Shown here: one piece after another, positions 1-26,447 of the stretch | Numbering within the stretch: position 1 is the stretch's first letter | Layout: each line of letters starts with the position of its first letter | NCBI RefSeq assembly: GCF_000186885.1 | Contig: NC_014972.1 | Span: 2,010,001-2,042,000 of the forward strand | DNA: 32,000 bases | Source of the DNA: Desulfobulbus propionicus DSM 2032 | Lineage (GTDB): Bacteria; Desulfobacterota; Desulfobulbia; Desulfobulbales; Desulfobulbaceae | Direction of reading: 5' to 3' | Notes under the pieces: model-generated | What the model was told of the DNA's origin: nothing | Seen by the model: only the letters and a program-made list of their open reading frames with translations | Databases searched by the model: none | Position numbers and translations under genes: made by a program

Positions 1-369
1 CTGATGCTGCCCCTGGCGCGTCCCAAGGTACTGATCGTGGTTGACGCCGAATTCGTGTCCGGACAGCCGCCCGGACAGGTGCGGCACTGCACGCCAAGGG
101 AGCTGGAACGGCGCAAGGTGGCTGATTTTTCCCTGCACCAGTTTCCCACGGTCAATCTCCTGGCCGAACTGGAAGAGGAGAGCGGCATCGAGGTGCTGTT
201 GCTGCTGGCCCAGGCGGCCTCCCTGCCTGACCACGTCGCTCCGGGACTGTCGCCTCCCATGCAGGCGGCCGTCGACACGGCCTGCGCGCGCCTGCTCGAC
301 CTTGTCGGCTTGCACACCGCTTGCCGACACCACAGTCCCGCAACCGTCCTGGAGGCCGCCGCGTCATGA
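1..369 (+). CDS. [NiFe]-hydrogenase maturation endopeptidase (HybD/HycI/FrhD family), C-terminal part; the 5' end lies outside the window
   Basis: The frame is open from the window edge to TGA 367-369. The translation ...KVLIVVDAEFVSGQPPGQV...FSLHQFPTVNLLAEL... carries the D-A/PG and S-x-H-Q blocks typical of hydrogenase C-terminal proteases. The stop overlaps the next start (ATGA at 366-369). Confidence 0.7.
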   Translation: MMLPLARPKVLIVVDAEFVSGQPPGQVRHCTPRELERRKVADFSLHQFPTVNLLAELEEESGIEVLLLLAQAASLPDHVAPGLSPPMQAAVDTACARLLDLVGLHTACRHHSPATVLEAAAS

Positions 370-1844
370 TCTATGAGGTCAAGGTCAATGATTTGGCCGA
401 AGAGTTCGGGGTCCATCGCAACACTATTCGCAACTGGATCAATTCCGGCGTCCTGCCGGCCCAGGAAGGACCGGGCCGGCGTTACCTGATCCAGTGGGAA
501 GATTACAAACGGCTGTGCGACAAGTACGGCCGCGAACCCCGCATCGCCCCCGATGCGGCAGCGGCCAGCGAACCGTCGCCCGCGCCGCGAACCAACGGCG
601 CGGTACCGGTGCCGGTCCGCCTGGAGGCAAAAACCAACCCGCTCTACACCTCGCCGATTTTGGCCGATGTCTGCCTCACCTGCGGTTCCTGCGCCGGCGC
701 CTGCCCGATCTCCGGCGTTGACGACCTCGATCCGCGCAAAATCATCCGCATGGCCTTCCTCGGCCTGGACGACGAACTGGTGGAAAGCGATTGGCCCTGG
801 AAATGCACCATGTGCGGCAAGTGCGAGGTGGTCTGCCCGATGAACGTCGAGATCGTCCAGCTGCTGCGCCGCATTCGCGCCCGCCGTTCCCGCGACAAAG
901 TGCCGCCAGCGATTCAAAAGGGGGTCATGACCTGCCTGGAGAAGGGCAACAACCTTGGCATTCCCAAGGACGATTTTCTGGCGTTGCTCAAGGAACTGGG
1001 CGAGGAACTCGCCGAGCGGTCATGCCCCGGCTTTGTCACCCCGGTGGATGTGCGCGGCGCGCGGTTGCTGGTGACCGTCAATTCCAAACAGCCCTTTGCC
1101 GAGCCCGACAGCCTTACCTGGTGGTGGAAGATCTTCCATGCCGCCGGCGAATCGTGGACCATCTCCTCCGAATATTGGGAGGGGGTCAACTGGGGGCTGC
1201 ATTCCGGCGATTACAGCGCCATGCGCACCATTGTCAAGCGGATCATCGACAATATCGAACGGCTCAACTGCAAGGCCCTGCTCCTGCCCGAGTGCGGCCA
1301 CGCCTACTACGCCACCCGCTACGCCCTGGAACGCTGGTTTCCCGAGTCGCTCCAGCAATTCAAAATCTACACCGTGTTTGACCTGCTGCTCGAATATCTC
1401 GACCAAGGCCGGATCACGCTCAATCCCAACATCCACACCCAGCTGGCGACCTTCCACGACTCCTGCAACTACGGCCGCAAGTCATTGAAAACCTTTGGCC
1501 ACGGGTATTTCGACGAGGCCCGGACCCTGACCCGCGCTTGCTGTCCCAACTACATCGACATGATCCCCGACCGCGAGGAAAATTACTGCTGCGGGGCCGG
1601 CGGCGGCGCCTGGGCCAGCCCGTTCTGGGCCGAGCGGGTCTATCATGGCCGGATCAAGGCCCGGCAAATCAGCGAGTCCGGAGCCAAGGTGGTGGTCACC
1701 GCCTGCCAGAACTGCCGCGACCAGCTGCAGACCTCGCTCAACCGCGAATTCAATCTCAACATCGACGTCCAATTTGTGTGGGAACTGGTGGCCAATTCCC
1801 TGATCACCCAACCCTCGGATGTCGTGGAGGGCCGCCATGCCTGA
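366..1844 (+). CDS. HdrD-like Fe-S/CCG-domain oxidoreductase fused to an N-terminal excisionase/MerR-type HTH domain (492 aa)
   Basis: ATG 366 is translationally coupled to the upstream stop. The N-terminus MIYEVKVNDLAEEFGVHRNTIRNWINSGVLPA...YLIQWEDYKRL looks like an HTH_17/excisionase-type DNA-binding domain. An Ala/Pro-rich linker follows. There are two CxxCxxCxxxCP motifs (CLTCGSCAGACP at 672-707, CTMCGKCEVVCP). Cys-rich CCG-type blocks (FHDSCNYGR, NYCCGAGGG, TACQNCRDQL) resemble HdrD/HdrB-like proteins. Codons are GC3-rich throughout, including the HTH part. Confidence 0.85.
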   Translation: MIYEVKVNDLAEEFGVHRNTIRNWINSGVLPAQEGPGRRYLIQWEDYKRLCDKYGREPRIAPDAAAASEPSPAPRTNGAVPVPVRLEAKTNPLYTSPILADVCLTCGSCAGACPISGVDDLDPRKIIRMAFLGLDDELVESDWPWKCTMCGKCEVVCPMNVEIVQLLRRIRARRSRDKVPPAIQKGVMTCLEKGNNLGIPKDDFLALLKELGEELAERSCPGFVTPVDVRGARLLVTVNSKQPFAEPDSLTWWWKIFHAAGESWTISSEYWEGVNWGLHSGDYSAMRTIVKRIIDNIERLNCKALLLPECGHAYYATRYALERWFPESLQQFKIYTVFDLLLEYLDQGRITLNPNIHTQLATFHDSCNYGRKSLKTFGHGYFDEARTLTRACCPNYIDMIPDREENYCCGAGGGAWASPFWAERVYHGRIKARQISESGAKVVVTACQNCRDQLQTSLNREFNLNIDVQFVWELVANSLITQPSDVVEGRHA

Positions 1845-4800: not shown

Positions 4801-4920
4801 ATCTGCCAGGGCACCTGTCCCAAACGGGGCGTGGATGTGGCCGGCTTCACCTATGCACAGATCGAGGCACAGATCGACGCGGCCCTGGAAATAGCCGAAC
4901 CGGCGGAGGAAGAGGCATGA
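1837..4920 (+). CDS. hdrA: HdrA-like FAD/Fe-S flavoprotein with tandem-duplicated flavoprotein core (about 1027 aa)
   Basis: There are two dinucleotide-binding motifs (VLVVGGGISGMQAALDMADSGY and VLIIGGGVAGMTAALNLADQGY). There are two QC(I/V)GSR blocks (FLQCIGSRDKNRC..., FIQCVGSRNEERPYC...). An HdrA N-domain-like block sits between them (GVFICHCGTNIAG...AACTPRTHE). An inserted ferredoxin (CIACGQCSGSCP...CGLCAEICP) and a C-terminal ferredoxin (CDGCGLCVEVCP...CKGCGICQGTCP) are present. The start is uncertain: ATG 1837 overlaps the upstream stop, and 1819 or 1852 are alternatives. Confidence 0.9.
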   Translation: MPEQTMIGSVLVVGGGISGMQAALDMADSGYYVYLVEKTGAIGGAMPQYNKVFPTNDCSMCIIAPKLVECGRHPNIRIMTLSTVLDVNGRAGNFTVRVREYPRYVDTAKCIACGQCSGSCPKSVDDSFNANITKRKAIYIKYPQAVPLKYQIDPQACIHLNNAEKCGLCAEICPPGAINFADRERDHELRVGAVVMALGFQVFDPSTAKVWGYGVYPNVITSLQFERYLSPGGPTEGLLTRPSDRKPVKKIAFLQCIGSRDKNRCNNEYCSAVCCMYAIKEAMTVKEANPELEVTIFYMDMRTPGKEFDRYLERARNEYGVRFVRSRIHGVEPKGRKGDLRLHYISVQGKQVEEVVDLVVLSVGLETPDSMIRLAEKIGIHMTPDRFASISAFMPVHTSKRGVFTCGAFNGPRDIPQSVIGGSAAAASVSALLTPARHTLTRTLPPPMEQDVSGEAPRIGVFICHCGTNIAGVVDVEEVAAYAASLPQVVHVTRNLFTCSQDTQDLMVQQIREKGLNRIVVAACTPRTHEPLFRKTLKSAGINEYLIEMANIRNQNAWVHNQEPDMATAKAKDLVRMAVAKVTSQTARKPLRIPIAPSVLIIGGGVAGMTAALNLADQGYQIHLVEKTTQLGGNALHLFQTWNGEHVPRFLKELKERVQQHPLIEVAYTSTVLAVSGHVGNFTTTIRTGSSRKRTIEHGAVIITTGAKRYIPEEFEYGKIPKVVASIEFDKLHMHNETRVAGGKSFVFIQCVGSRNEERPYCSKSCCTHSIQSAIKLKKEVPSRQIYILYREIRTYGQRERIYNQARELGIVFINYELHGPPQIKKADNGVLVEVWDHVLHRPLEIRADVVILAAATLASPEAAELASLFKLPLNSDGFFQEAHVKLRPVEFNVDGVFVAGLAHYPKPLEESISQALAAAAKAGRLLARKEINLEPNVALVNPILCDGCGLCVEVCPYQAITLAEYRDESGEPRKTVHIDQVLCKGCGICQGTCPKRGVDVAGFTYAQIEAQIDAALEIAEPAEEEA

Positions 4921-5339
4921 GCGGGCAAGCCAAGATCATTGCCTTCTGTTGCAACTGGTGTTCCTATGCCGCGGCCGACCTGGCCGGCATCTCCCGATTG
5001 CAGTATCCGGGCTCGATCCGCATCATCCGCGTGATGTGCTCGGGCATGGTCCATCCGGAGATGGTCCTCCATGCTCTCAACCGGGGGGCCGAAGGGGTGA
5101 TGATCATCGGCTGCCATCTGGGTGAATGCCACTATATCCGGGGCAACGAGATGGCCCTGGCCCGAGCCGAGGTGATTGCCGATACTCTTGAGGATTTGGG
5201 CTACGAGAGCGAACGGTTCCAGCTCACCTGGGTTTCCTCGGCGGAACCCGAACGGCTGGCCGACGCCTTCCGTTCCATGAGCGCCCGCCTCGCCGTTCTG
5301 CGAGGCGAGACGCCGGCCGAAACCGAGGCCGGCGAGTAG
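4917..5339 (+). CDS. mvhD: Methyl-viologen-reducing hydrogenase delta subunit (MvhD)
   Basis: ATG 4917 overlaps the hdrA stop (ATGA). The translation MSGQAKIIAFCCNWCSYAAADLAG...YPGSIRIIRVMCSGMVHPEMVLHAL..GAEGVMIIGCHLGECHYIRGN matches the MvhD Cys pattern. Confidence 0.9.
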   Translation: MSGQAKIIAFCCNWCSYAAADLAGISRLQYPGSIRIIRVMCSGMVHPEMVLHALNRGAEGVMIIGCHLGECHYIRGNEMALARAEVIADTLEDLGYESERFQLTWVSSAEPERLADAFRSMSARLAVLRGETPAETEAGE

Positions 5340-5346
5340 GGGAGTC

Positions 5347-6273
5347 ATGCGGCCCCGGCTCAGTTTCGAATGGCTCCATGCCTGCTGCGGCTGCGAAATT
5401 GCCCTGCTCAACAGCGGCGAGTCGCTGCTGCGCCTGCTGGAGCGGGTGGAGATCGTTCATTTTCCCCTGCTGATGGACCACAAATACCACTCCAGGGGCG
5501 AGACCTTCGACCTGCCCGAGGCCGAGATCGGCGTGGTCTCCGGCGGGGTGGCCGACAGGGCGCAGCTGGCGATGCTGAAAACCATGCGTGCCCGCTGCCA
5601 CACCTTGATTGGACTGGGCACCTGCGCCACCCACGGCGGTATTCCCGCCCTGCGCAACCAGTGGAGCGTCGAAACCACCTTGGACACGGTCTATGGACAG
5701 AGTGCGGGCGAACAAGGACTGGTGCCGGCTGCGCTCGCCGCCCCCTTGGATCGGGTCTACAGCGTGGACGAACAGGTGCGGCTCGACCTCTGCCTGCCCG
5801 GCTGTCCACCCCGGCCGGAAACGATCGTGGAGGCGATCGTCGCCCTGATTGACCACAACTCGCCGCGCCTGCCGCGCAAGAGCGTGTGCGAGACCTGCCC
5901 CGCCCAGCGGCAGGGCAAGGGGGCGGAACGGCTGCGCCGTTTTCTCGACAATGCCGATCATGGGGCGGATGAACCTGTCGAGCGAATGCGCTGCCTACTC
6001 GAACAGGGATTGCTGTGCATGGGACCGGTCACCGCCGGCGGCTGCGGCGGCCAGGAGGCGCCACTATGCATCCAGGCACGGGTGCCCTGCCGGGGCTGCT
6101 ACGGTCCGGTGCGGACGGACGGCAACCCCCTGCTGGACATGCTGGGTGCCCTGGCGAGCAACGGTATCGAGTATCGCGGCCTGGTTGACCGCAAGTCGCT
6201 GCTGCGCTTCAGCGGCGCCCACGGCCTGCTCAAGCCGCAACGCCGGCCGAATCTCCACGACCAAGGAAAATAG
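5347..6273 (+). CDS. mvhG: [NiFe] hydrogenase small subunit, group 3c (MvhG-like)
   Basis: A GGGGAG RBS precedes ATG 5347. Proximal-cluster motifs are HACCGCEIALL, GLGTCATHGGIPAL and LPGCPPRPE. The C-terminal Cys-rich ferredoxin-like part is CETCP...CMGPVTAGGCGG...CRGCYGP. Confidence 0.9.
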   Translation: MRPRLSFEWLHACCGCEIALLNSGESLLRLLERVEIVHFPLLMDHKYHSRGETFDLPEAEIGVVSGGVADRAQLAMLKTMRARCHTLIGLGTCATHGGIPALRNQWSVETTLDTVYGQSAGEQGLVPAALAAPLDRVYSVDEQVRLDLCLPGCPPRPETIVEAIVALIDHNSPRLPRKSVCETCPAQRQGKGAERLRRFLDNADHGADEPVERMRCLLEQGLLCMGPVTAGGCGGQEAPLCIQARVPCRGCYGPVRTDGNPLLDMLGALASNGIEYRGLVDRKSLLRFSGAHGLLKPQRRPNLHDQGK

Positions 6274-6302
6274 GGCGACGCGTGCGCCTCACAGGGAGCG
6301 GT

Positions 6303-7748
6303 ATGTCACAGGTCATCAGCATCCATCCGGTCACCCGCATCGAAGGCCATGCCCGGGTCGATATCCACCTCGACGAGGTGGGTCGGGTGCGCGACGCCCG
6401 GGTGGCCATCGCCGCCCTGCGCGGGTTCGAACAGTTCGTCATCGGTCGGCCGGCCGAGGAAATTCCCCGGATCGTCAGTCGAATTTGCGGCATCTGTCCG
6501 TGGATGCACCATCTGGCCGCGGTCAAGGCCGTGGATGGCTGCTTTGCCGCCTCGGTACCGCCCGCCGGTCACCTATTGCGCGAACTTTGCCAGATATTGG
6601 CGCATATCCACGACAAAATCCTTCATTTCTTTTTTCTCGCCGCCCCGGACTTCGTGCTTGGACCCGGGGGCGACTACGCCGTGCGCAACATCATGGGTCT
6701 GGTCAAACAGGAACCGGAACTGGCGGCACGGGTGGTGTGCATGCGCCAGCTGGCCACGGCCATGCTGGCCCGTTTCGCCGGCAAGGATATCCATCCGGTG
6801 GCCGGCGTGGTGGGTGGCTTCTCCAAACCGATGCGCAAGGAGGAACAAGCGGCGATGCGGGCCGATGGCCAGCACCTGCTCGATTTCGCCTCCTTTGCCC
6901 TCGATTTCGCCAAGACCAGGGTATTCGCCCGCTTTCAGGAGGAATTGCAGTCTCTGGGCACGATCACCACCGGTTTTCTTGGCACGGTCGATGACCAGGG
7001 CAGCCTGCGACTCTACGACGGCAATCTGCGGCTGATGCGGGCCGATGGCCGCAGTGTCGATTTCCCGGTCAGCGATTATGAGCGGTTTCTTGCCGAACAT
7101 GTCGAATCCTGGTCCTCGGCCAAAATGGTCTATGCCAAGTGCTGGGGCGAGGGCTTTCGCCTCGACCCAAAGGCGCCCCAGGGGATTTACCGGGTCAATA
7201 CCCTGGCCCGGCTCAATGTCTGCGACCAGATCGCCACCCCCCGTGCCCAAGCCGAGTTGGAGGCATTCCGTGAACGCTTCGGCCGCCCGGCCCAGGGAAC
7301 CCTGCTCTATCACTGGGCGCGATTGATCGAACTGGTCCACGCCTGTGAACGGGCCTTGGAACTGCTGGCGGACGACCGGATCACCGCCCCCCAGGCGCGC
7401 CTGCCGGCGCAGCCCGCAGCGGGCAGGGGAATCGGCCATGTCGAGGCGCCGCGCGGCACCCTGATCCACGACTACACCACCGATGACAACGGCTGCATCA
7501 CCCGGGCCAATCTCATTGTCGGCACCACCCACAACATCGCGCCGATGAACCTGAGCGTGCACCAGGCCGCAGCCCGCCTGATCGCCGACGGTGAGGTGGA
7601 CGAGGAGATCCTCAACCGGATCGAGATGGCCATCCGGGCCTACGACCCGTGAATTTCCTGCGCCACGCACCGCCTGGATGGCGGGCTGCCACTGACTGTA
7701 ACCCTGGTTGACCATCACGGCGCGCCGGTCCGTTTCCTGCGGCGCTAA
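6303..7748 (+). CDS. mvhA: [NiFeSe] hydrogenase large subunit, group 3c (MvhA/VhuA-like), with in-frame UGA (7650-7652) read as selenocysteine U450; 481 aa
   Basis: A GGGAG RBS precedes ATG 6303. The N-terminus has ISIHPVTRIEGH and the RICGICPWMH ligand motif (6480-6509). The tracked ORF ends ...AIRAYDP at TGA 7650-7652. The same frame continues ISCATHRLDGGLPLTVTLVDHHGAPVRFLRR to TAA 7746-7748, which gives the canonical DP-(C/U)-xx-C-xx-H C-terminal Ni ligand motif plus a protease-cleavable tail. Confidence 0.8.
7659..7691 (+). promoter_or_regulatory. Candidate bacterial SECIS-like stem-loop downstream of the UGA
   Basis: The core is CCGCC(7670-7674)-UGGAU-GGCGG(7680-7684). It can be extended outward with single-nucleotide bulges to about 7659/7691. 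The upper stem starts roughly 16-18 nt 3' of the UGA. Folded by eye only. Confidence 0.4.
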
Positions 7749-7793: not shown

Positions 7794-8048
7794 ATGAACG
7801 AAAACATGGAAGAAAAGCATCGCAAAATCGTCCGGGTCGAGGCCCCCAACTGCGCCTGCGGCTGCGTCGGCCACATGACCGCCGACGAGCTCAAGCAACG
7901 AGCGGCCAATGACGACATGGACCTCTCCTGTCCGATCTGCGGCCTGATCCACCTCAGCCGCGAAGAGATCGACGACCTGGAGAAGCAGAAAGTGGTCAAC
8001 TCGAAACGGTACCGGGAAATCCAGCGTCAAGCCGAATCCGTGGGATGA
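7794..8048 (+). CDS. Small Cys-rich hypothetical protein (84 aa; CxCxC...CPxC, acidic/helical C-terminus)
   Basis: The ORF track has 7752-8048. I prefer ATG 7794 (or 7806) because the 7764-7781 hairpin lies upstream of it. Codons are GC3-rich. The sequence is ...VEAPNCACGCVGHMTADELKQRAANDDMDLSCPICGLIHLSREEIDDLEKQK.... I do not recognise a family. No clear RBS. Confidence 0.55.
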   Translation: MNENMEEKHRKIVRVEAPNCACGCVGHMTADELKQRAANDDMDLSCPICGLIHLSREEIDDLEKQKVVNSKRYREIQRQAESVG

Positions 8049-8225
8049 CGACGCGGCGGTTGCCCACTATCCGGCACGCAGAGCAGGCTATGCCAGTTGG
8101 GCAAGATGTTCACAAAAGAAAAAAGATGGTGCAAAAGACTGCTTGCTGCTAGACTGCTTTTTGTGGTCGAAGCCGGCATTTGATCCATTCCCCGCAAGGG
8201 ATCTTCCACCCGTTCACGAATCAGC

Positions 8226-14486: not shown

Positions 14487-16937
14487 ATGCAGCTTCCCAA
14501 ACCACAACGCATACAAACAAAATTCATCACCGGTCTGATGCTGGCCGCCATGCTCCTCGGGGTCGCCTCCTCGGCCGGGTTTTATCTCCATCTGCGCAAC
14601 GTGCTGGAGGAGGAGGTGCGGGACAAGGCCCGGCTGATCCTCATGCATGTGGATTCGATCCAACACTATGTACGCGATGTGCTCCGGCCGACCATGTACG
14701 AGCGGCTGCCCGAGGCCTTTGTCATCCAGGCCATGTCGTCGTCCTATATTTCACGCAAGATCATGGCCCCGATCAATGCGCTTCACGAAGGAGCCATCTT
14801 CCGCCGGGTGGCCATCGATGCCCGCAATCCAGAGTACGAGGCCAACGACCACGAGCGCGAATTGATCCGCGCCTTTCGCGACAACGCCGAGCTCAAGCTG
14901 TGGCAGGGATATCGGGTGCTCAACGACGAGAAATACTTTCTCCTGGTCCGACCGGTGCGCTTTGAGCAGGAGTGCATGTATTGCCACGGCGATCCCCAGG
15001 ACGCGCCCGCCGACCTGCTCAAACTCTACGGCCAGCGCGGGTTCGGCAAACGCCAGGGGGATATTGCCGGCGTGGACTTTGTCGGTATTTCGGTCCACGG
15101 CAGCGTCGGCCGGGTGGAACGGACCATTTTCACCTATTTCGCCTTGTTCGCCCTGGTGGTGTTGCTGGTCTTTTTCGCCGCCAATGTGCTGTTCAAGGTG
15201 CTGGTGGTCAACAACCTCAAACGGCTCAACGCGGTATTCCGCCGCAACGTTACCGACGATGCGGGGTCGGCCCTGCTGCACCAGCTGGAACAGGGCGACG
15301 AGATCGACGAACTGGTCGATGGCATGGAGCAGATGAGCGAGCACCTGTTCGAGGCCAGGAGCCAGCTTCAGGATTACGCCGAAAACCTGCGCCGCATGGT
15401 CGACGAGCGCACCGACGCCCTCAGCTCCGAAGTGGAGGCGCGGCGGGCGGATGTGCGCCTCTTCGTCCGCCTGCTCGAGGACATGTACAAGAGCCGTTCG
15501 CGCGCCCAGCTGTGGCGGATGGCCCTGCCGCAGATCTGCTGCCGTTTCGCGGCCGAACGCATCGCCTATGTGTGCACCATGGGTTCGCAGAGCTCCTTTG
15601 TCTGGCCGGAGCAGGCCGCCATGCCCGAACTGCCGGACAATTTCGTCGAGGTTCTGACCGGCAGCGCCTGCGTGGCCGTGGACAATCGTCTGTTCGTGCC
15701 GGTGGAATCGAGCACCGGCAACGCCGAAGGGCTGTTGATCCTCCTGTGGCCGACCGAGGCCGAGGCCGCCCGCCATGACCGGGATGTGCTGCTCGCCCTG
15801 GGCAGGCAACTGGGCATCGCCGCCGAGAACCTGACCGCCATAGACAGCCTGTTTCGGCAGATGAATGTCCTGGAAACCATTGTCGAGGGCATCTCCGATC
15901 CCCTGGTGCTGATGGACGGCTGTTGCACCGTGCTCACCGCCAACCAGGCGGCCAGGACCCTGGCCTCGGAACTCACCGGGGGCGCACGCAGCGACGGCAA
16001 CATCCTGGCCCTGTTTTTCGACCTGCATGCCGCAGATTGTCCCATGCGCGAGGTTCTCTCCCGTGGCGCCTCGGATCTGCGCGAGGTCAGCCTGCCGGGC
16101 GGGCGCTCCTTTGCCCTGGCTCTCTATCCGGTGGGCGGCCGCGACGGCATCGCCGATCAGGTGGTGGTTTATTTGCGGGAGACGACCATGGAGAAACGGA
16201 TGCGGATGCAGGTCTGGCAGTCGGAGCGCATGGCCACGGTCGGCAAGCTGACCGCTGGCCTGGCCCATGAAATCAACAATCCCCTGGGGGTCATTCTCTG
16301 CTATGCCGGCCTGTTGCGGCAGTCGATCACCGACCCGCAGCAGATCACCGACCTGGAAATCATCGAGCGCCACACCCGCCAGGCCCAACGGGTGTTGCGC
16401 GATCTGCTCGATTTCGCCCGGCCCAAGGCCGCGGGCTCGGGCACGGCCGATGCCTGCGGGGTCGCTGCCGCCATGATCGAGGTGTTCTCGGTGCAGGCGA
16501 CCAAAAAAGGGGTGGTCCTGACCTTGGATCGCCCGCCGGAGCGGCTCGTGGTGCGCATGGGAGTCGGCGAGCTGGAGCAGGTGCTCAGCAACCTGATGAT
16601 CAACGCGCTGGATGCGGTTGATCAGCACACGGGCCTTGTCCGGGCACGGGTTGCCGTCGTCGATGACGACATGGCGATCCTCGAGGTCGAAGATAATGGG
16701 CCTGGGGTAAGCGCGGACGATGCGGCCCATATCTTTGATCCCTTCTACTCCACCAAGGAGATCGGCGCCGGCACCGGCCTGGGGCTGACCGTGGTCTACG
16801 GCATGGTCACCGATGTCGGCGGCACGGTGGAGGTGGACCGTTCGCCCGATCTGGGCGGAGCGCGGTTCAGGGTCACCCTGCCCAGAGGTGGGGAGCAGGG
16901 CGGGGAACAACAACTCGGGTTGGGGGGCACATCGTGA
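14487..16937 (+). CDS. Sensor histidine kinase with periplasmic heme-c (CxxCH, DUF3365/Tll0287-like) sensor, HAMP, GAF/PAS-like region, HisKA and HATPase
   Basis: TM1 is FITGLMLAAMLLGVASSAGFYL. The periplasmic part carries CMYCH (14973-14987). TM2 is IFTYFALFALVVLLVFFAANVLF. The H-box is LAHEINNPL. ATPase boxes are NLMINALDA, DNGPGV and GTGLGL. The start has no clear RBS. Confidence 0.88.
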   Translation: MQLPKPQRIQTKFITGLMLAAMLLGVASSAGFYLHLRNVLEEEVRDKARLILMHVDSIQHYVRDVLRPTMYERLPEAFVIQAMSSSYISRKIMAPINALHEGAIFRRVAIDARNPEYEANDHERELIRAFRDNAELKLWQGYRVLNDEKYFLLVRPVRFEQECMYCHGDPQDAPADLLKLYGQRGFGKRQGDIAGVDFVGISVHGSVGRVERTIFTYFALFALVVLLVFFAANVLFKVLVVNNLKRLNAVFRRNVTDDAGSALLHQLEQGDEIDELVDGMEQMSEHLFEARSQLQDYAENLRRMVDERTDALSSEVEARRADVRLFVRLLEDMYKSRSRAQLWRMALPQICCRFAAERIAYVCTMGSQSSFVWPEQAAMPELPDNFVEVLTGSACVAVDNRLFVPVESSTGNAEGLLILLWPTEAEAARHDRDVLLALGRQLGIAAENLTAIDSLFRQMNVLETIVEGISDPLVLMDGCCTVLTANQAARTLASELTGGARSDGNILALFFDLHAADCPMREVLSRGASDLREVSLPGGRSFALALYPVGGRDGIADQVVVYLRETTMEKRMRMQVWQSERMATVGKLTAGLAHEINNPLGVILCYAGLLRQSITDPQQITDLEIIERHTRQAQRVLRDLLDFARPKAAGSGTADACGVAAAMIEVFSVQATKKGVVLTLDRPPERLVVRMGVGELEQVLSNLMINALDAVDQHTGLVRARVAVVDDDMAILEVEDNGPGVSADDAAHIFDPFYSTKEIGAGTGLGLTVVYGMVTDVGGTVEVDRSPDLGGARFRVTLPRGGEQGGEQQLGLGGTS

Positions 16938-18403
16938 TGAACAACCGGTCCGCGACATCTCCAACCAACCGGGACAGCTTGGTTGACATCGTCATCGTCG
17001 ACGATGAGCAGGATTTTGCCCGTGGCCTGGCCCGCCTGGTATCCGGACGTTTTCCCGAGGCGCGGGTGGAAGCGGCCCTGAGCGGTGCGGAGGCTTTGCG
17101 CCTGCTTGCCGCGCGCAAGGTGCAGCTGATGATCACCGACCTGCGCATGCCGGAGATGAACGGCATGCAGTTGCTCACCGAGGCCCTCAAGCTCGATCCG
17201 GATCTGAGCATGGTAGTGCTTAGCGCCTACGGCACCATCGAGACCGCGGTCGAGGCACTGCACGCCGGCGCCTACGATTTTCTCACCAAACCCATCGAAC
17301 CGGAGCAACTGTTCCGGGTGGTGGCCAAGGGGCTGGAACGCAGCCGGCTGCTGACGGAAAACAATCGGCTGCGTCAGATCCTCTCGCAACAGGATTCCCA
17401 GGGAGAACTGGTGGGCGAGGGACCAGCCATGCGCACGTTGCGCCAGGCCATCGGCGCGGTCGCCCAGTCCGACTACACGGTGCTGATCCGGGGAGAGTCG
17501 GGCACGGGCAAGGAACTGGCCGCCCGCCTGATCCACCGCCTGGGAGGACGGGCCGACAATCCCTTTCTCGTGGTCAACTGCCCGGCGATCCCGGAAAACC
17601 TGTTGGAAAGCGAGCTGTTCGGGCATGTCAGGGGGGCCTTCACCGGTGCCGACAAGGCGCACCAGGGGTTGTTCGCCGCCGCCCACACCGGTACCCTCCA
17701 CCTGGATGAGATCGGCGACATCAGCCCTGCGGTCCAGACCAAACTGCTGCGTTTCCTTCAGAACGGCGAGATCCGGCCGGTCGGTTCCAACGAATCCCAA
17801 TCGGTCGATGTCCGGGTGATCGCCTCCACCAACCGCGATCTTGAAGCCAGCCTGCGCGACAACGCCTTCCGCGAGGATCTCTACTATCGTCTCAATGTCC
17901 TCACCCTGACCCTGCCGGCCCTGCGCGAGCGCCCCGAGGACATTCCCCTCCTCGCCGGCCATTTTCTCCGCCGCTCCTGCGAGGAGATGGGGCTGGCCGG
18001 CAAGGAGATGGACGCGGAAGTCCTGCAATGGCTGACCGCGCGCCCCTGGCCGGGCAACGTGCGCGAACTGCAGAGTTTCATCCGCCGGTTGGCGGTGTTC
18101 TGTACCGGCGAACGGCTGGACATGGCCCTGGTGCGGCGCGTCCTGGAAGGCAGCGGCCAAACCGACCGGCCTCATCGGCCCGTCCACGGCCGGCCGACCA
18201 GGCCAATGGCCTACAAGGAGGCCAAGGCCGAGGTGGTGCATGCCTTCACCCAGGACTACGTCAGGAATCTGTTGACCCTGACGCGCGGCAATGTGTCCGA
18301 GGCGGCACGGATCTCGGGCCTGTCGCGGGTGGCCTTGCAAAAGATCCTGGCGCGGATGGGCGAACAGGCCGCCACCTTCCGCTCCCAGAAGGGCGCGCCC
18401 TAG
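16934..18403 (+). CDS. Sigma-54-dependent response regulator (NtrC family: REC + AAA+ + Fis-type HTH)
   Basis: The REC domain is IVIVDDE...MITDLRMPEMNG. Walker A is GESGTGKE and the GAFTGA loop is present. The C-terminal HTH is GNVSEAARISGLSRVALQKIL. GTG 16934 / ATG 16937 overlap the kinase stop. Confidence 0.93.
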   Translation: MMNNRSATSPTNRDSLVDIVIVDDEQDFARGLARLVSGRFPEARVEAALSGAEALRLLAARKVQLMITDLRMPEMNGMQLLTEALKLDPDLSMVVLSAYGTIETAVEALHAGAYDFLTKPIEPEQLFRVVAKGLERSRLLTENNRLRQILSQQDSQGELVGEGPAMRTLRQAIGAVAQSDYTVLIRGESGTGKELAARLIHRLGGRADNPFLVVNCPAIPENLLESELFGHVRGAFTGADKAHQGLFAAAHTGTLHLDEIGDISPAVQTKLLRFLQNGEIRPVGSNESQSVDVRVIASTNRDLEASLRDNAFREDLYYRLNVLTLTLPALRERPEDIPLLAGHFLRRSCEEMGLAGKEMDAEVLQWLTARPWPGNVRELQSFIRRLAVFCTGERLDMALVRRVLEGSGQTDRPHRPVHGRPTRPMAYKEAKAEVVHAFTQDYVRNLLTLTRGNVSEAARISGLSRVALQKILARMGEQAATFRSQKGAP

Positions 18404-22597: not shown

Positions 22598-22933
22598 GGG
22601 ATGTTCTCACTTCTCGCGAACAAGGGTCGGGACAGCGGCATTCCGCTGCCAGTGCAATCAGAGCGGTATTAACCACGTTTTCCCGATCCTGTCGATCTCC
22701 TTGCCACGAAAATCTCCACTGAGTCATGATGGCTTTCCTCCCACACGGCAAGCGGGGGACGACAACGGAGGTCCCGGTTGGTCAAACCGCTTGCTGCCGC
22801 CTTCTGTCCCTGGGGGGCTCAGCTATCCTCATCGTGTCGAATCGACGGTGCCGGATGGACGTCAGCGTTTGACCGTGCTCAGAATTTACTGATCGAACAA
22901 CGGCAATTATTTATAAATATTTTTATTCTTCAA

Positions 22934-22953
22934 ATACTTATACAAATAAGTAT
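22934..22953. promoter_or_regulatory. Perfect 8-4-8 AT-rich palindrome ATACTTAT-ACAA-ATAAGTAT inside an AT-rich island; candidate operator upstream of sodA
   Basis: Read directly. A second 12-bp palindrome, TATTTATAAATA, lies at 22908-22919. Confidence 0.4.
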
Positions 22954-22973
22954 AAATTATTATTTTGTATTAT

Positions 22974-23001
22974 TTGACAATAAAATTTCCGGATTTACTG
23001 T
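22974..23001 (+). promoter_or_regulatory. Sigma-70-like promoter: TTGACA, 16 nt spacer, TACTGT
   Basis: The -35 element is perfect at 22974-22979. The -10 candidate is at 22996-23001. It lies about 150 nt upstream of the sodA ATG. Confidence 0.4.
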
Positions 23002-23149
23002 TTTGTTTACAACAGGGAGGGACGAGGTCCAGTTTCTACGAACAAGGGTATTTTTCTCCCGGATCATCCGAACGCGCTGTTGGTTGACCAGCATCTGCCC
23101 TGATCGCAGGTGCTTGCAAAACGACAACAATCAATGGACGAGGTATCCC

Positions 23150-23755
23150 ATGGAACATACACTGCCCCCATTACCCTACGCCTATGACGCATTGGAACCC
23201 TTCATCGATGCCCGCACCATGGAGATTCACCATACCAAACATCACCAGGCCTACATCACCAACCTCAACGCTGCACTCGGAGAACAGCCCGCTCTCGGCG
23301 AATTGAGCGTGGAAAAACTCCTGCACAATCTCAACGAGGTACCCGAGAACATCCGCACAGCAGTGCGCAATCACGGTGGCGGTCATGCCAACCACAGCTT
23401 CTTCTGGCCTCTGTTGAAGAAGGATGTGGCGGCCAAGGGGCCAGTGATCGAGGCCCTTAGCGATAAATACGGCGATTTCGATGCCTTCAAGGATCAATTT
23501 TCCACGGCCGCGATCAAGCTGTTCGGCAGTGGCTGGGCCTGGCTGGTGGTGGACAAGGGGAACCTGGAAATCATCACCACCCCCAATCAGGACAGCCCGC
23601 TCATGAACGGCAAGATTCCGGTGCTTGGCCTTGATGTTTGGGAACACGCCTACTACCTGCTCTATCAGAACCGGCGGCCCGACTATGTGGCTCAGTTTTT
23701 CAAGGTGATCAACTGGGAGAAAGTCAACGAGCACTATCTTGCGGCCATCGGCTGA
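23150..23755 (+). CDS. sodA: Fe/Mn-family superoxide dismutase with Mn-type signature residues
   Basis: The translation begins [35 protein letters not shown].... [13 protein letters not shown] and TPNQDSPL resemble the Mn-type pattern, and DVWEHAYYL is a ligand block. The tracked ORF 22778-23755 is an upstream in-frame extension through intergenic AT-rich DNA. Confidence 0.9.
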
Positions 23756-23912: not shown

Positions 23913-23993
23913 AAAGAATCACTTCTCCATGTTTGCCGTGCTCAGCCGTTGTATCGGCGACGATTTTTCTTTTTCCTCCCGTTGCGGTTGTCC

Positions 23994-26447
23994 ATGAAGT
24001 GTTCTTTTCTGTGTGTGCTCAGCCTCCTGCTCCTTCTTCTCACCCCGCCGGTCATCCGTGCCGACAACCGGTTGCAAACCGTGACCCTGCAGCTCAAATG
24101 GACCCATGCCTTCCAGTTTGCCGGCTATTACACGGCCCTGGAAAAGGGCTATTACCGGGAGGCCGGCCTGGATGTCCGCATTGTCGAGGGACAGCCGGGG
24201 AGCAATCCGGCTGATGCGGTGCTGCGCGGCGAGGCCCAGTACGGCATCGGCAACACGTGTCTGCTGCTCCGACGCAGTCAGGGGCAGCCGGTGGTGGTGC
24301 TGGGCGTAATCTTCCAGCATTCGCCCATGGTCATTCTCGCACGAAAAACCGGACCGACGCAGAGCATCCATGACCTGGCCGGCAAGCGGTTGATGCTTGA
24401 ACCGGAAACCGACGAGCTGACGGCTTATCTCAACAAGGAGGGTTTGAAGGATAAGGTGACCTTGGTGGAACACCGCTTTGACATGCAACCGCTGCTTGAC
24501 GGTTCGGTGGATGCCATGGCCGCCTTTGTCTACGACGAGCCCCACCAGCTGGAGCATGTGGATTTTGCCTATGCGCTGTTCAATCCACGCTCGGCGGGCA
24601 TCGATTTCTACGGCGACAACCTGTTCACCACCGAAGCTGAAATCAGACAGCATCCCCGGCGCGCCGAGGCCTTCCGGGCCGCCAGCCTGCGCGGCTGGCA
24701 GTATGCCATGGCCCATCCCGAGGAAATCATCCATCTCATTCTCGCCAAATATCCCACTCGGCAAGACCGGGGCGCCCTGCTCCACGAGGCACGGCAAATG
24801 AAGGAGCTGATGCAGCCGGACCTGATCGAGGTGGGTTACATGCATCCCGGGCGCTGGCGGCACATCGCCGACACCTATGCCGAACTGGGCATGCTCCCCG
24901 GCGACTTCCGCCTGGAGGGATTTCTCTACCAGCCCGATCCCTTTTTCCGCTACGACCTGCTGCTGCGGTGGAGCGCCGGGATCCTGGTGGTGCTGACCGT
25001 CTCGGTCTGGCTGATGATCCGTTTTTCCCGCATTGCCCGCAAGGCGAGGCAGAGCGAGCAACGCCACCGGCTGCTGGCCGATAATGTCACCGATGTGATC
25101 TGGACCTTGGACCTCGAGGGACGATTCACCTATGTCAGCCCCTCGGTCAAAAAACTGCGCGGCTACACCCCCGAGGAAGTGATGCGCGGCACCCTCCTGG
25201 ACACGCTGACCCCGGAATCAGCCACGGTTGCCAAGCAAAAACTGATCGAATTCAGGAAGGAGGTGCGGTCGGGCAGTGCATTGCGCCTCTTTCGCGGCGA
25301 ACTGGAACAGCCCTGTAAAGGCGGCGGAACGGTCTGGACCGAGGTCAACTGCGCGCCGCTGGTGGGCGCCGACGGCACGGTGGTCGGGATTGTCGGCGTG
25401 ACCCGCGACATCAGCGAGCGCAAACGGATGGAGGCGGAATTGCGCCGGCTGGCCACCACCGATCCACTGACCGGGGCCTACAACCGGCGTTTTCTCTACG
25501 AAAAGGCAACACAAGAACTGGAGCGAAGCCGCCGTTTCAAGCAACCGTTGAGCTTTCTCCTGGTGGATATCGACTGGTTCAAGCGGATCAACGATGCCCA
25601 CGGCCACGACATCGGCGACGAAGTGCTCAAGACGATGAGTCGGGCCTGCATGGGGCTGCTGCGGTCCATCGATCTGTTCAGCCGTTTGGGCGGCGAGGAG
25701 TTCGGCATCCTCCTGGTCAATACCGGCCGAGAGGGCGGGCACGTTTTTGCCGAACGGCTGCGCCATCATCTGGAACAGCTGGAGGTCGCCTGTCCGGGCG
25801 GCCCGATCCGCTTCACGGTCAGCATTGGCCTGGCGGTGTCCGACGACACGGTGGGCACGGTCAACGATCTGATTAAACAGGCGGATCTGGCCCTGTATGT
25901 GGCCAAGGCCAATGGCCGCAACCGAGTGGAATCAGCCGGCAGCTGCCGCCGCTCGCCGCAACCTGCGGGCACGTCGCTCAGCGCCGTCGCCCACCTGATC
26001 TGGGACGATCTGATGTGCTGCGGTCAGCCCACCATCGACGAGCAGCACCGTCGGCTGTTCGCCTTGGCCAACCAACTGCTCGACACCCCGTGGCCCGGAG
26101 AAAATGGTCAGTTGCCGGATGTCGCGCCGGTGGAGGCTTTTCTCGCCGAAATCACGGCCCACTTCCATGACGAGGAAAGCCTGCTGCGGACCGCCGGCTA
26201 TCAAGAAGTCAGCGAGCATGCGAAACTGCATCTTACCCTGGTCAATCAGGCTCGTGCCCTGCTGGAGCAGTGCAGAAACGGCAGTCTGTTGCCGGGTGAC
26301 CTGTCGCGCTTCATTGTCCAGGATCTGATGCACAATCACATGCTGCGCGACGACACCCGGTTTTATCCGTTGTTTGCGAATCCCCCGGCCCATGCGGCCA
26401 ACACGTCTGATCACCCTCCGGTCCACCCGGCAGACAGCCGGGCCTAG
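23994..26447 (+). CDS. Membrane diguanylate cyclase: periplasmic SBP-like (NMT1/SsuA-type) domain, TM, PAS, GGDEF (GGEEF), C-terminal hemerythrin-like domain
   Basis: The signal peptide is MKCSFLCVLSLLLLLLTPPVIRA. The SBP-like block is TLQLKWTHAFQFAGYYTALEKGYYREAGLDV. The TM is LLLRWSAGILVVLTVSVWLMI. A PAS domain is present (DVIWTLDLEGRFTYVSPS...). The GGEEF motif is at 25689-25703. The C-terminus has the hemerythrin ligand pattern (WDD...IDEQHRRLF; AHFHDEE; HAKLH; HNHMLRDD). Confidence 0.88.
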   Translation: MKCSFLCVLSLLLLLLTPPVIRADNRLQTVTLQLKWTHAFQFAGYYTALEKGYYREAGLDVRIVEGQPGSNPADAVLRGEAQYGIGNTCLLLRRSQGQPVVVLGVIFQHSPMVILARKTGPTQSIHDLAGKRLMLEPETDELTAYLNKEGLKDKVTLVEHRFDMQPLLDGSVDAMAAFVYDEPHQLEHVDFAYALFNPRSAGIDFYGDNLFTTEAEIRQHPRRAEAFRAASLRGWQYAMAHPEEIIHLILAKYPTRQDRGALLHEARQMKELMQPDLIEVGYMHPGRWRHIADTYAELGMLPGDFRLEGFLYQPDPFFRYDLLLRWSAGILVVLTVSVWLMIRFSRIARKARQSEQRHRLLADNVTDVIWTLDLEGRFTYVSPSVKKLRGYTPEEVMRGTLLDTLTPESATVAKQKLIEFRKEVRSGSALRLFRGELEQPCKGGGTVWTEVNCAPLVGADGTVVGIVGVTRDISERKRMEAELRRLATTDPLTGAYNRRFLYEKATQELERSRRFKQPLSFLLVDIDWFKRINDAHGHDIGDEVLKTMSRACMGLLRSIDLFSRLGGEEFGILLVNTGREGGHVFAERLRHHLEQLEVACPGGPIRFTVSIGLAVSDDTVGTVNDLIKQADLALYVAKANGRNRVESAGSCRRSPQPAGTSLSAVAHLIWDDLMCCGQPTIDEQHRRLFALANQLLDTPWPGENGQLPDVAPVEAFLAEITAHFHDEESLLRTAGYQEVSEHAKLHLTLVNQARALLEQCRNGSLLPGDLSRFIVQDLMHNHMLRDDTRFYPLFANPPAHAANTSDHPPVHPADSRA

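Follow-up and report, generated by a model that had tools for sequence, protein, structure and literature searches.

An HdrD-like iron-sulfur protein with a fused winged helix in Desulfobulbus propionicus and its relatives, and tandem repeats at the 5′ ends of its operons

Introduction

A locus of Desulfobulbus propionicus DSM 2032 raises the question of whether an iron-sulfur (Fe-S) enzyme subunit could also regulate the genes that encode it. The window analysed here is a stretch of 32,000 nt (NC_014972.1, positions 2,010,001-2,042,000, forward strand). It contains a gene, here called HTH-hdrD, that joins a helix-turn-helix (HTH) domain to a protein resembling HdrD of heterodisulfide reductase, and that stands in an operon with genes for HdrA2, MvhD and an MvhGA-type [NiFe] hydrogenase. 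We find that this fusion is conserved, and also describe conserved tandem repeats at the 5′ ends of the operons, a new finding of this analysis. HdrA-based bifurcating modules are central to the energy metabolism of anaerobes, and their regulation and electron acceptors are largely unknown in sulfate reducers, syntrophs and their relatives. An HdrD-like subunit with a DNA-binding domain and a predicted operator offers a concrete way, open to test, in which the redox state of such a complex could act on hydrogenase gene transcription. We found no published description of this HTH-HdrD fusion in the literature searched; an earlier mention is possible.

The fusion gene and its conservation

A preliminary description of the window had placed the HTH and the HdrD-like part in one reading frame, and this is borne out. 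A single open reading frame (ORF) runs from ATG 366 to TGA 1842-1844 in both the ORF list and the sequence. Pfam finds HTH_17 at residues 7-42 (36.3 bits, gathering score 27), Fer4_8 at residues 101-161 and a single CCG stretch at residues 362-454 (39.3 bits, cut-off 20.6). The NCBIfam family TIGR01764 (“excise”) is narrowly under its cut-off (24.9 versus 28.8 bits). The best NCBIfam matches, across residues 101-483, are HmcF (177 bits), TmcB (174) and DsrK (150), versus equivalog cut-offs of 750, 735 and 400; membership of these families is rejected on the scores and on gene context too.

In an alignment of 19 sequences all eight cubane cysteines are invariant, in two CxxCxxCxxxCP motifs (C103-P114 at 672-707 and C147-P158 at 804-839). 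The full cysteine set of the C-terminal CCG domain, the presumed site of a non-cubane [4Fe-4S] cluster, is also invariant (C367 at 1464, C392, C408-C409 at 1587-1592 and C447xxC450 at 1704-1715). The first CCG-like region (891-1415) gives no Pfam CCG match and has C302 as its sole invariant cysteine, C310 being variable. With one degenerate region and a single Pfam CCG stretch, the HdrD-like module is not the complete one that had been described.

We searched 5.8 billion proteins and obtained 583 homologues, of which 120 were listed. PF12728 occurs together with Fer4 and CCG domains in all but three of the 120 listed, down to 51% identity, and two of the three (P0103, P0119) are 5′-truncated gene calls. 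At least 531 species-representative genomes encode a relative, conserved as a full-length fusion. The orders represented are Desulfobulbales, Syntrophobacterales and Desulfobacterales, with sequences from Desulfobulbus, Desulfogranum, Desulfopila, Desulforhabdus, Syntrophobacteraceae and Desulfobacteraceae. The source names are generic (“4Fe-4S dicluster domain-containing”, “helix-turn-helix domain-containing”, “excisionase family DNA binding protein”). In all 85 loci fetched (numbered with the prefix L) the alignment begins no later than query residue 5. Mean pairwise identity is 0.61 in the HTH, 0.21 in the linker and 0.60-0.68 in the body; conservation of the HTH equals that of the enzyme body.

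Translation from an internal codon (GTG at residue 82 or TTG at residue 99) would leave the HTH stretch outside the protein. Such in-frame codons are present (GTG 609, TTG 660, and a further TTG at residue 10), no further ATG in frame occurs within residues 2-128, and the nearest HTH-less relatives begin at about the same point. A start-codon artefact is nevertheless highly improbable. The ATG at 366-368 follows a GGAGG and shares ATGA with the stop codon (TGA 367-369) of the hycI-type gene before it, whereas none of the three internal codons has a Shine-Dalgarno sequence ahead of it. The HTH part has a coding-type G+C content at third codon positions (0.75, compared with 0.83 in the body), its conservation is at the protein level across the genomes counted above, and the frame is open from residue 1 in all 85 loci. 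There is no evidence of a start downstream of the HTH, a finding that would have refuted the preliminary description.

In a library clustered at 50% identity the HTH is kept by a single full-length representative. The next full-length relatives (35-42% identity, about 405-442 amino acids) begin about 25-30 residues before the first Fe-S motif, without HTH and linker, and we therefore regard HTH and linker as a clade-specific addition. In five short representatives (P0206-P0210) similarity to the family ends in the linker or beyond it, and the tail of one resembles the +1 frame of the window. They look like frameshifted or partial gene calls, although not each was checked, and the possibility that homologues encode the HTH as a separate gene is rejected, in line with what had been proposed.

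The nearest HTH-less sister family comprises (Fe-S)-binding proteins of about 440 amino acids with 42% identity (P0123 and relatives; L086 8001-9320, L087 8001-11389). On one metagenome contig the sister gene adjoins a single HdrA-like gene of 686 amino acids. It stands alone on a contig with an identical protein annotated for Desulforhabdus amnigena (P0368), a species that encodes the HTH-fused version too (P0076).

Predicted structure

The AlphaFold2 model of the full-length fusion, built on the 19-sequence alignment, has a mean predicted local distance difference test (pLDDT) score of 78. It consists of an N-terminal winged helix, a disordered linker (residues 62-90, pLDDT about 30) and a confident body. 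Modelled in isolation, residues 1-60 reach a pLDDT of 88.7, with the topology beta-alpha-alpha-beta-beta-alpha (strand 2-6, helices 7-14 and 18-27, strands 32-35 and 39-43, helix 44-54). The HTH fold named in the preliminary description is recovered here as a predicted winged helix.

Foldseek against the Protein Data Bank (PDB) places the body near EtfD of M. smegmatis (9ojn, E 9e-13), HdrB (5odc_B, E 3.6e-5), LutA and HdrC. The neighbours of the N-terminal domain are RacA-DNA, BldC-DNA, Pukovnik Xis, NmlR, lambda gpNu1, MtaN, CadR and SoxR; the top ones are all DNA-binding winged HTH domains, several of them solved on DNA. E-values for this small domain are modest (about 0.01-0.03), with probabilities of about 1. 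BldC-DNA superposes with a template modelling (TM) score of 0.76 and a root-mean-square deviation (rmsd) of 2.2 Å over 50 residues, and Xis with a TM score of 0.69. A profile of the HTH domain compared with PDB sequences matches Pukovnik Xis best (E 1.4e-4). No coiled-coil dimerisation helix follows the HTH domain in the AlphaFold2 model, which has the disordered linker instead, so we class the domain as BldC/Xis-like and not as classical MerR.

Fourteen residues of the HTH part are invariant in the 19-sequence alignment (A11, G15, H17, R18, N19, T20, R22, N23, W24, G28, L30, G37, C51 and G55). Seven of these fall in the recognition helix H17-W24 (HRNTIRNW), in homologues that are 50-87% identical, and basic residues recur in the wing among the aligned homologues.

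Operon context

HTH-hdrD had been described as the first gene of its cluster. It is the second: a hycI-like protease gene (1-369) precedes it with the ATGA overlap. A full hycI gene of 164-177 codons precedes HTH-hdrD in L001, L082 and L083, and hycI opens the operon in homologous loci. The likely start of hdrA2 is ATG 1837, which overlaps the stop codon of HTH-hdrD (ATGCCTGA). In the window hdrA2 encodes two HdrA-like halves fused in tandem, the same architecture as is reported for BamE.

Counting loci with the gene among those with enough sequence, HycI lies ahead of HTH-hdrD in 75/82 loci and HdrA2 follows it in 81/81. MvhD is present in 71/73, MvhGA in 60/68 and a small Cys/His protein in 63/68, operons without mvhGA included. 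The order hycI, HTH-hdrD, hdrA2, mvhD, mvhG, mvhA and small gene is kept in 58/68. Seven variant loci (L013, L015, L022, L043, L044, L056, L085) lack hycI and mvhGA. The constant core is HTH-hdrD with hdrA2, mostly together with mvhD. The preliminary description had asked whether the fusion is conserved and always linked to hdrA-mvhDGA; its conservation and the link to hdrA2 hold, and mvhDGA genes are its usual companions only. Since HdrA2 is linked in every one of these loci, with overlapping genes, we expect stoichiometric co-translation of the two proteins.

No other HdrB, HdrC or HdrD gene is found in the operon, in the window or in the inspected homologous loci, which makes the HTH-hdrD protein the obvious HdrBC-equivalent partner of HdrA2. 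No other conserved regulator gene is found in the inspected neighbourhoods, and no DsrM/HmcE/TmcC-type membrane gene is adjacent in the window or the inspected loci.

These observations bear on the idea that the protein is a dedicated one-component transcription factor, in which the HdrD-like part does no more than sense redox state or thiols as an Fe-S module, in the manner of SoxR or FNR, and is no working enzyme subunit. One CCG domain is degenerate, the HmcF, TmcB and DsrK scores are far under their equivalog cut-offs, and two of the structural neighbours, SoxR and CarH, are examples of MerR-type HTH regulators that carry sensory cofactor domains. We nonetheless think it quite unlikely. 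HdrA-type bifurcating modules need a high-potential branch of HdrBC/HdrD type, for which the fusion is the only candidate in the operon, and the linkage to an overlapping hdrA2 is constant. The cubane and C-terminal CCG cysteines are all invariant, and BamD homologues also work with one intact non-cubane site. DsrK-type proteins do so as well. Because HdrA2 has no other HdrB/C/D partner in the operon, and because the genes overlap, we favour an enzyme subunit with an added regulatory role over a pure regulator.

The last conserved gene of the operon encodes the small Cys/His protein, with the conserved pattern VR..(n)p..aCG...HMT.DEL...fD..CPxCG..HL (three cysteines, two histidines) and no Pfam or NCBIfam match. 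It could be a Zn-ribbon-like partner, a maturation factor or a redox acceptor of the HdrD-like subunit. In the window it is followed by genes for HypF, HypD, HypE and HypB.

In one Syntrophobacteraceae genome (L083/L084 1484-7250) an operon of hycI, HTH-hdrD, hdrA2 and mvhD, without mvhGA, lies directly behind a HoxEFUYH-type NAD-linked [NiFe] hydrogenase cluster. Directly ahead of the operon, two distant members, Desulforhabdus amnigena (L082 5678-6970) and the locus of a 51%-identity homologue (L085 189-1490), have a gene for a protein of about 430 amino acids in which SEC-C and HEAT_2 domains are combined.

Tandem repeats at the 5′ ends of the operons

We analysed the operon 5′ regions of related loci, 80 of them after dereplication for the 8-mer count. 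The 8-mer TTGCACAA occurs in 47 of the 80, versus a maximum of 14 in shuffled sequences. It belongs to tandem direct repeats with a 9-bp period, unit TTGCACAAn, in two to three copies. The position weight matrix reads A[T/G]GCAC[A/T]nTTTGCACAA, and its flanks carry no information. With up to two mismatches, the tandem pattern TGCACANNNTGCACA is present between -300 and +74 of the operon start in 79/83 loci, compared with a mean of 4.1 and a maximum of 9 loci after dinucleotide shuffling. Exact matches occur in 15 loci, versus 0 in the shuffles. Over the 1.43 Mb scanned, 18 exact matches fall in the 2.1% of sequence at operon starts and three fall elsewhere.

The sites have a regular position. 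Of 66 loci, 47 have the start of the forward site 35-44 bp ahead of the conserved HycI core codon, and the repeats lie just 3′ of predicted -10 hexamers in L001 and L018. Inverted sites occur in 37 loci, mostly 55-180 bp upstream, and in L018 two inverted tandem sets bracket the promoter. The hycI start region of Desulfobulbus carries a site of two to three repeats (...TTATGCACATCTCGCACAAC...), and the site of Desulforhabdus amnigena reads ATTGCACAACCTGCACAAA. Syntrophobacterales have sites at -61 (L082) and -49 (L083). In L083/L084 the motif lies between the Hox cluster and the operon, right before hycI.

Where hycI and mvhGA are absent, exact sites lie 5′ of HTH-hdrD itself (L013 at -69, L015 at -70, L056 at -169 and L085 at -261). 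The repeats thus track HTH-hdrD even without hydrogenase genes, and this supports a link between the two. No repeat motif was found upstream of HTH-less sister genes in the two loci examined, which differ in context.

All three exact matches away from operon starts (L065 18169; L078 17845 and 17861) are directly 5′ of an adjacent periplasmic-type [NiFe] hydrogenase operon. The repeats there span 17836-17877 in L078, as four units that form a back-to-back palindrome, and 18169-18183 and 18295-18309 in L065. This operon encodes a small subunit with NiFe_hyd_SSU_C, plus a large subunit (L078) or a HybA-like Fe-S protein (L065). The sites before it suggest a small hydrogen-metabolism regulon.

The window begins inside hycI and contains no good repeat site; its own operator would lie about 165 bp upstream of base 1. 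A weak match to the tandem motif (two mismatches, minus strand) occurs at 8098-8112, in the intergenic stretch from the small gene to hypF. It is probably due to chance, although strong sites occupy this place in L078 and L065.

Three other explanations of the motif were rejected. A sigma-54 promoter reading of GGCACTGTTTGCA requires a strict N10 between GG and GC, and the spacing is N8, with GG absent in most loci. A cis-regulatory RNA finds no Rfam match in the 5′ region of L018, and the inverted copies and the copies before other genes favour an element that acts at the DNA level. The motif also does not derive from a conserved N-terminal peptide of HycI: it is mostly 5′ of the ATG, occurs in both orientations and is found before HTH-hdrD and hyn genes as well.

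A possible enzyme subunit and autoregulator

The preliminary description suggested a redox- or thiol-sensing regulator, or an enzyme tethered to DNA. This idea gains independent support from the conserved tandem repeats; its purely regulatory form is disfavoured above, and any redox or thiol sensing is putative. The reading that we prefer, with about even confidence, is that the protein resembles a trigger enzyme: an HdrBC-equivalent Fe-S subunit of an H2-dependent HdrA2-type complex that is also an autoregulator through its tethered winged helix. The body would be the HdrBC/HdrD-equivalent partner of HdrA2, MvhD and the MvhGA [NiFe] hydrogenase, and it would receive the high-potential electron when a flavin-based complex oxidises H2 by electron bifurcation, a role like that of BamD beside BamE. 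Candidates for the high-potential acceptor are DsrC, ETF and the co-encoded small Cys/His protein of 84 amino acids.

For the other end of the protein we infer from the fold and the layout of the repeats that a BldC/Xis-type winged helix, on a disordered linker of about 40 residues, may bind the tandem 9-bp repeats head-to-tail. Their period and layout are as expected for a BldC-like domain without a dimerisation region. The sites overlap the presumed transcription start, 5′ untranslated region and start codon of the first operon gene, often with a second, inverted set 55-180 bp upstream. The subunit may act as a repressor or other modulator of its own operon and, in some genomes, of the adjacent periplasmic [NiFe] hydrogenase operon. 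It may respond to redox or assembly state, by analogy with PutA, whose switch is redox-driven; the signal might be redox state, acceptor availability or assembly state.

If this holds, the few known trigger enzymes gain one that contains Fe-S clusters and is linked to bifurcation, and BldC-type head-to-tail binding extends to an enzyme-fused domain. The predicted operator TTGCACAAn can be used for regulon prediction in Desulfobulbales and Syntrophobacterales.

Several points weigh against an autoregulatory subunit. The link of the HTH to the repeats is a prediction, and a regulator encoded elsewhere could bind them; motif and recognition helix are both invariant and so show no co-variation. 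It would be unusual for a transcription factor to be a stoichiometric subunit of an enzyme that is probably abundant. The HTH-less control consists of two loci, and the promoter region of the D. propionicus operon is outside the window. In L001-L011, the closest relatives, the tandem site falls on the first codons annotated for hycI (MHISHN), and a clear distal site was not seen there. A metagenome-wide scan for TTGCACAANTTGCACAA found hyd/hdr genes at one of the 120 matches listed (L134), with the site beside an unrelated ORF; the pattern also matches by chance, and the scan is uninformative on regulon specificity. Finally, a winged HTH is a protein-protein interface in the related class II benzoyl-CoA reductase (BCRII) complex, where that of the MvhD-like BamF contacts BamI (bioRxiv 10.64898/2026.04.10.717634).

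The BamF-BamI contact also speaks for an alternative in which the winged helix is a structural or docking module, for another subunit or an electron acceptor, and the TGCACAA repeats are the operator of an unrelated regulator of hydrogen metabolism. The constancy of HdrA2 as partner of the fusion fits such a role, the repeats before the separate periplasmic hydrogenase operon (L065, L078) fit a general hydrogenase regulator, and binding of the repeats by the HTH is a prediction from sequence. We consider this alternative possible but somewhat doubtful. One would not expect a fixed interface to hang on about 40 disordered, poorly conserved residues. The domain is a genuine HTH_17, its closest structural neighbours are DNA complexes, and its invariant residues lie in a canonical recognition helix, with recurring basic residues in the wing. 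The 9-bp head-to-tail layout is typical of dimerisation-less MerR-like domains, the repeats accompany HTH-hdrD where hydrogenase genes are absent, and no other regulator gene is conserved in the inspected neighbourhoods.

The autoregulatory subunit could also be part of something larger, although we hold this to be rather unlikely. The whole Mvh-HdrA2-HdrD complex might act as a direct transducer from H2 and redox state to DNA, held by the tethered winged helices of its HdrD-like subunits at the operators of its own and other hydrogenase operons. It would bind or leave DNA according to the reduction state of the non-cubane cluster, which would report the balance of H2 supply versus high-potential acceptor. 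If true, a hydrogenase would itself regulate transcription, with no separate sensor, kinase or regulator.

Comparison with known systems

The body of the fusion resembles methanogen HdrD and HdrBC (5odc chains B and C) in its HdrC-like pair of [4Fe-4S] motifs followed by an HdrB-like CCG fold, and in being encoded beside HdrA, MvhD, MvhG and MvhA. It differs from them in that one of the two CCG cysteine sets is intact, in its N-terminal HTH and linker, and in having no HdrE-type membrane partner. To our knowledge the heterodisulfide of coenzymes M and B (CoM-S-S-CoB) is not expected in bacteria that carry the fusion. The gene set also matches the Mvh-Hdr bifurcating hydrogenase, in which HdrA, MvhD, MvhG and MvhA are encoded with an HdrBC/D-type subunit, the complex here being predicted from its genes.

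Cryo-electron microscopy of BCRII shows BamE as a fused HdrA dimer and BamD as an HdrD/HdrBC-like high-potential exit that docks electron-transferring flavoprotein; the distal non-cubane cluster of BamD is lost in most homologues (bioRxiv 10.64898/2026.04.10.717634). Like BamD in the BamDEF module, the fusion is a soluble HdrD-like protein with a fused double HdrA and an MvhD-like adaptor. We draw this likeness from the published description of BamD. Unlike in BCRII, electron input here would be the MvhGA hydrogenase and not BamGHI, there is no BamBC, and BamD is not reported with an HTH. The fusion likewise resembles DsrK, HmcF and TmcB, its best NCBIfam matches, which are HdrD-like subunits of membrane complexes in sulfate reducers and are without an HTH.

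The HTH resembles those of BldC from Streptomyces, Xis of mycobacteriophage Pukovnik and RacA, MerR-like winged helices without the MerR coiled coil (TM 0.69-0.76, rmsd 2.2 Å). BldC has no dimerisation domain and binds 9-bp direct repeats head-to-tail with two to four protomers (PMC5859096). Its repeat, AATTnnnn(C), differs in sequence from TTGCACAAn and has the same 9-bp period. Unlike these stand-alone proteins of 55-70 amino acids, the HTH of the fusion is tethered to an Fe-S enzyme subunit of 400 amino acids.

The enzymes PutA and BirA each act as repressor of the operon that encodes them (PMC6978683). As in both, enzyme and N-terminal DNA-binding domain are joined in one polypeptide; the fold and the chemistry differ (PutA has a ribbon-helix-helix, BirA is a biotin ligase), and the regulation proposed here is a prediction. 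SoxR, a weak structural neighbour, also combines a MerR-type HTH with an Fe-S redox sensor ([2Fe-2S]). Unlike the fusion, SoxR binds a palindrome as a coiled-coil dimer and has a sensor that is no subunit of an enzyme. In Methanosarcina barkeri the hdrBCA operon is regulated by the DNA-binding protein HdrR (PMC11218639), which, unlike the fusion, is a separate protein and not fused to an Hdr subunit.

Features and other genes of the window

The features of the operon are collected in Table 1.

Table 1. Positions of the HTH-hdrD gene, its predicted domains and the neighbouring operon genes in the window
Feature	Position	Strand	Basis and remarks
hycI-type [NiFe]-hydrogenase maturation protease gene, 3′ part, cut by window start	1..369	+	Pfam HycI, E 3.5e-13
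Shine-Dalgarno sequence GGAGG	350..354	+	11 nt ahead of ATG 366; read from the sequence
HTH_17-HdrD-like fusion gene	366..1844	+	492 aa; ORF list, sequence, Pfam HTH_17, Fer4_8 and CCG
N-terminal winged helix, residues 1-55, Xis/BldC/MerR-like	366..530	+	Pfam, AlphaFold2, Foldseek, profile versus PDB
Ala/Pro-rich flexible linker, residues 56-95	531..650	+	pLDDT 30-36; mean pairwise identity 0.21
HdrC-like ferredoxin domain, two CxxCxxCxxxCP motifs	651..890	+	Pfam Fer4_8; PDB HdrC 5odc_C, E 4e-15
Degenerate first CCG-like (HdrB-like) domain	891..1415	+	Alignment; HdrB/LutA-like fold
Intact C-terminal CCG domain	1416..1841	+	Pfam CCG, 39.3 bits; Foldseek HdrB 5odc_B, EtfD 9ojn
Fused tandem HdrA (HdrA2), 1027-1033 aa	1819..4920	+	PDB HdrA 5odc_A, E 3e-175, three stretches; NCBIfam HdrA2, 986 bits
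MvhD	4917..5339	+	Pfam FlpD, E 3e-50; ATGA 4917-4920 overlaps hdrA2 stop
MvhG-type [NiFe] hydrogenase small subunit	5347..6273	+	Pfam Oxidored_q6
MvhA-type [NiFe] hydrogenase large subunit	6282..7652	+	Pfam NiFeSe_Hases
Small Cys/His protein, 84 aa, last conserved operon gene	7794..8048	+	Mechanical ORF from 7752 (98 aa); conserved across loci

After the hyp genes, 14487-18403 encodes a histidine kinase with a Tll0287-like sensor and a sigma-54-dependent response regulator. The pair is absent from the gene tables of the distant loci L082, L083 and L085; no search was made across all loci. At 22778-23755, Fe/Mn superoxide dismutase domains begin at residue 126 of a TTG-started mechanical ORF; either the ORF is over-extended or the dismutase has a long N-terminal extension. 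The gene at 23949-26447 encodes a protein of 832 amino acids with an NMT1/THI5-like binding domain, PAS, GGDEF and a C-terminal hemerythrin domain, which may be an O2- or iron-sensing diguanylate cyclase.

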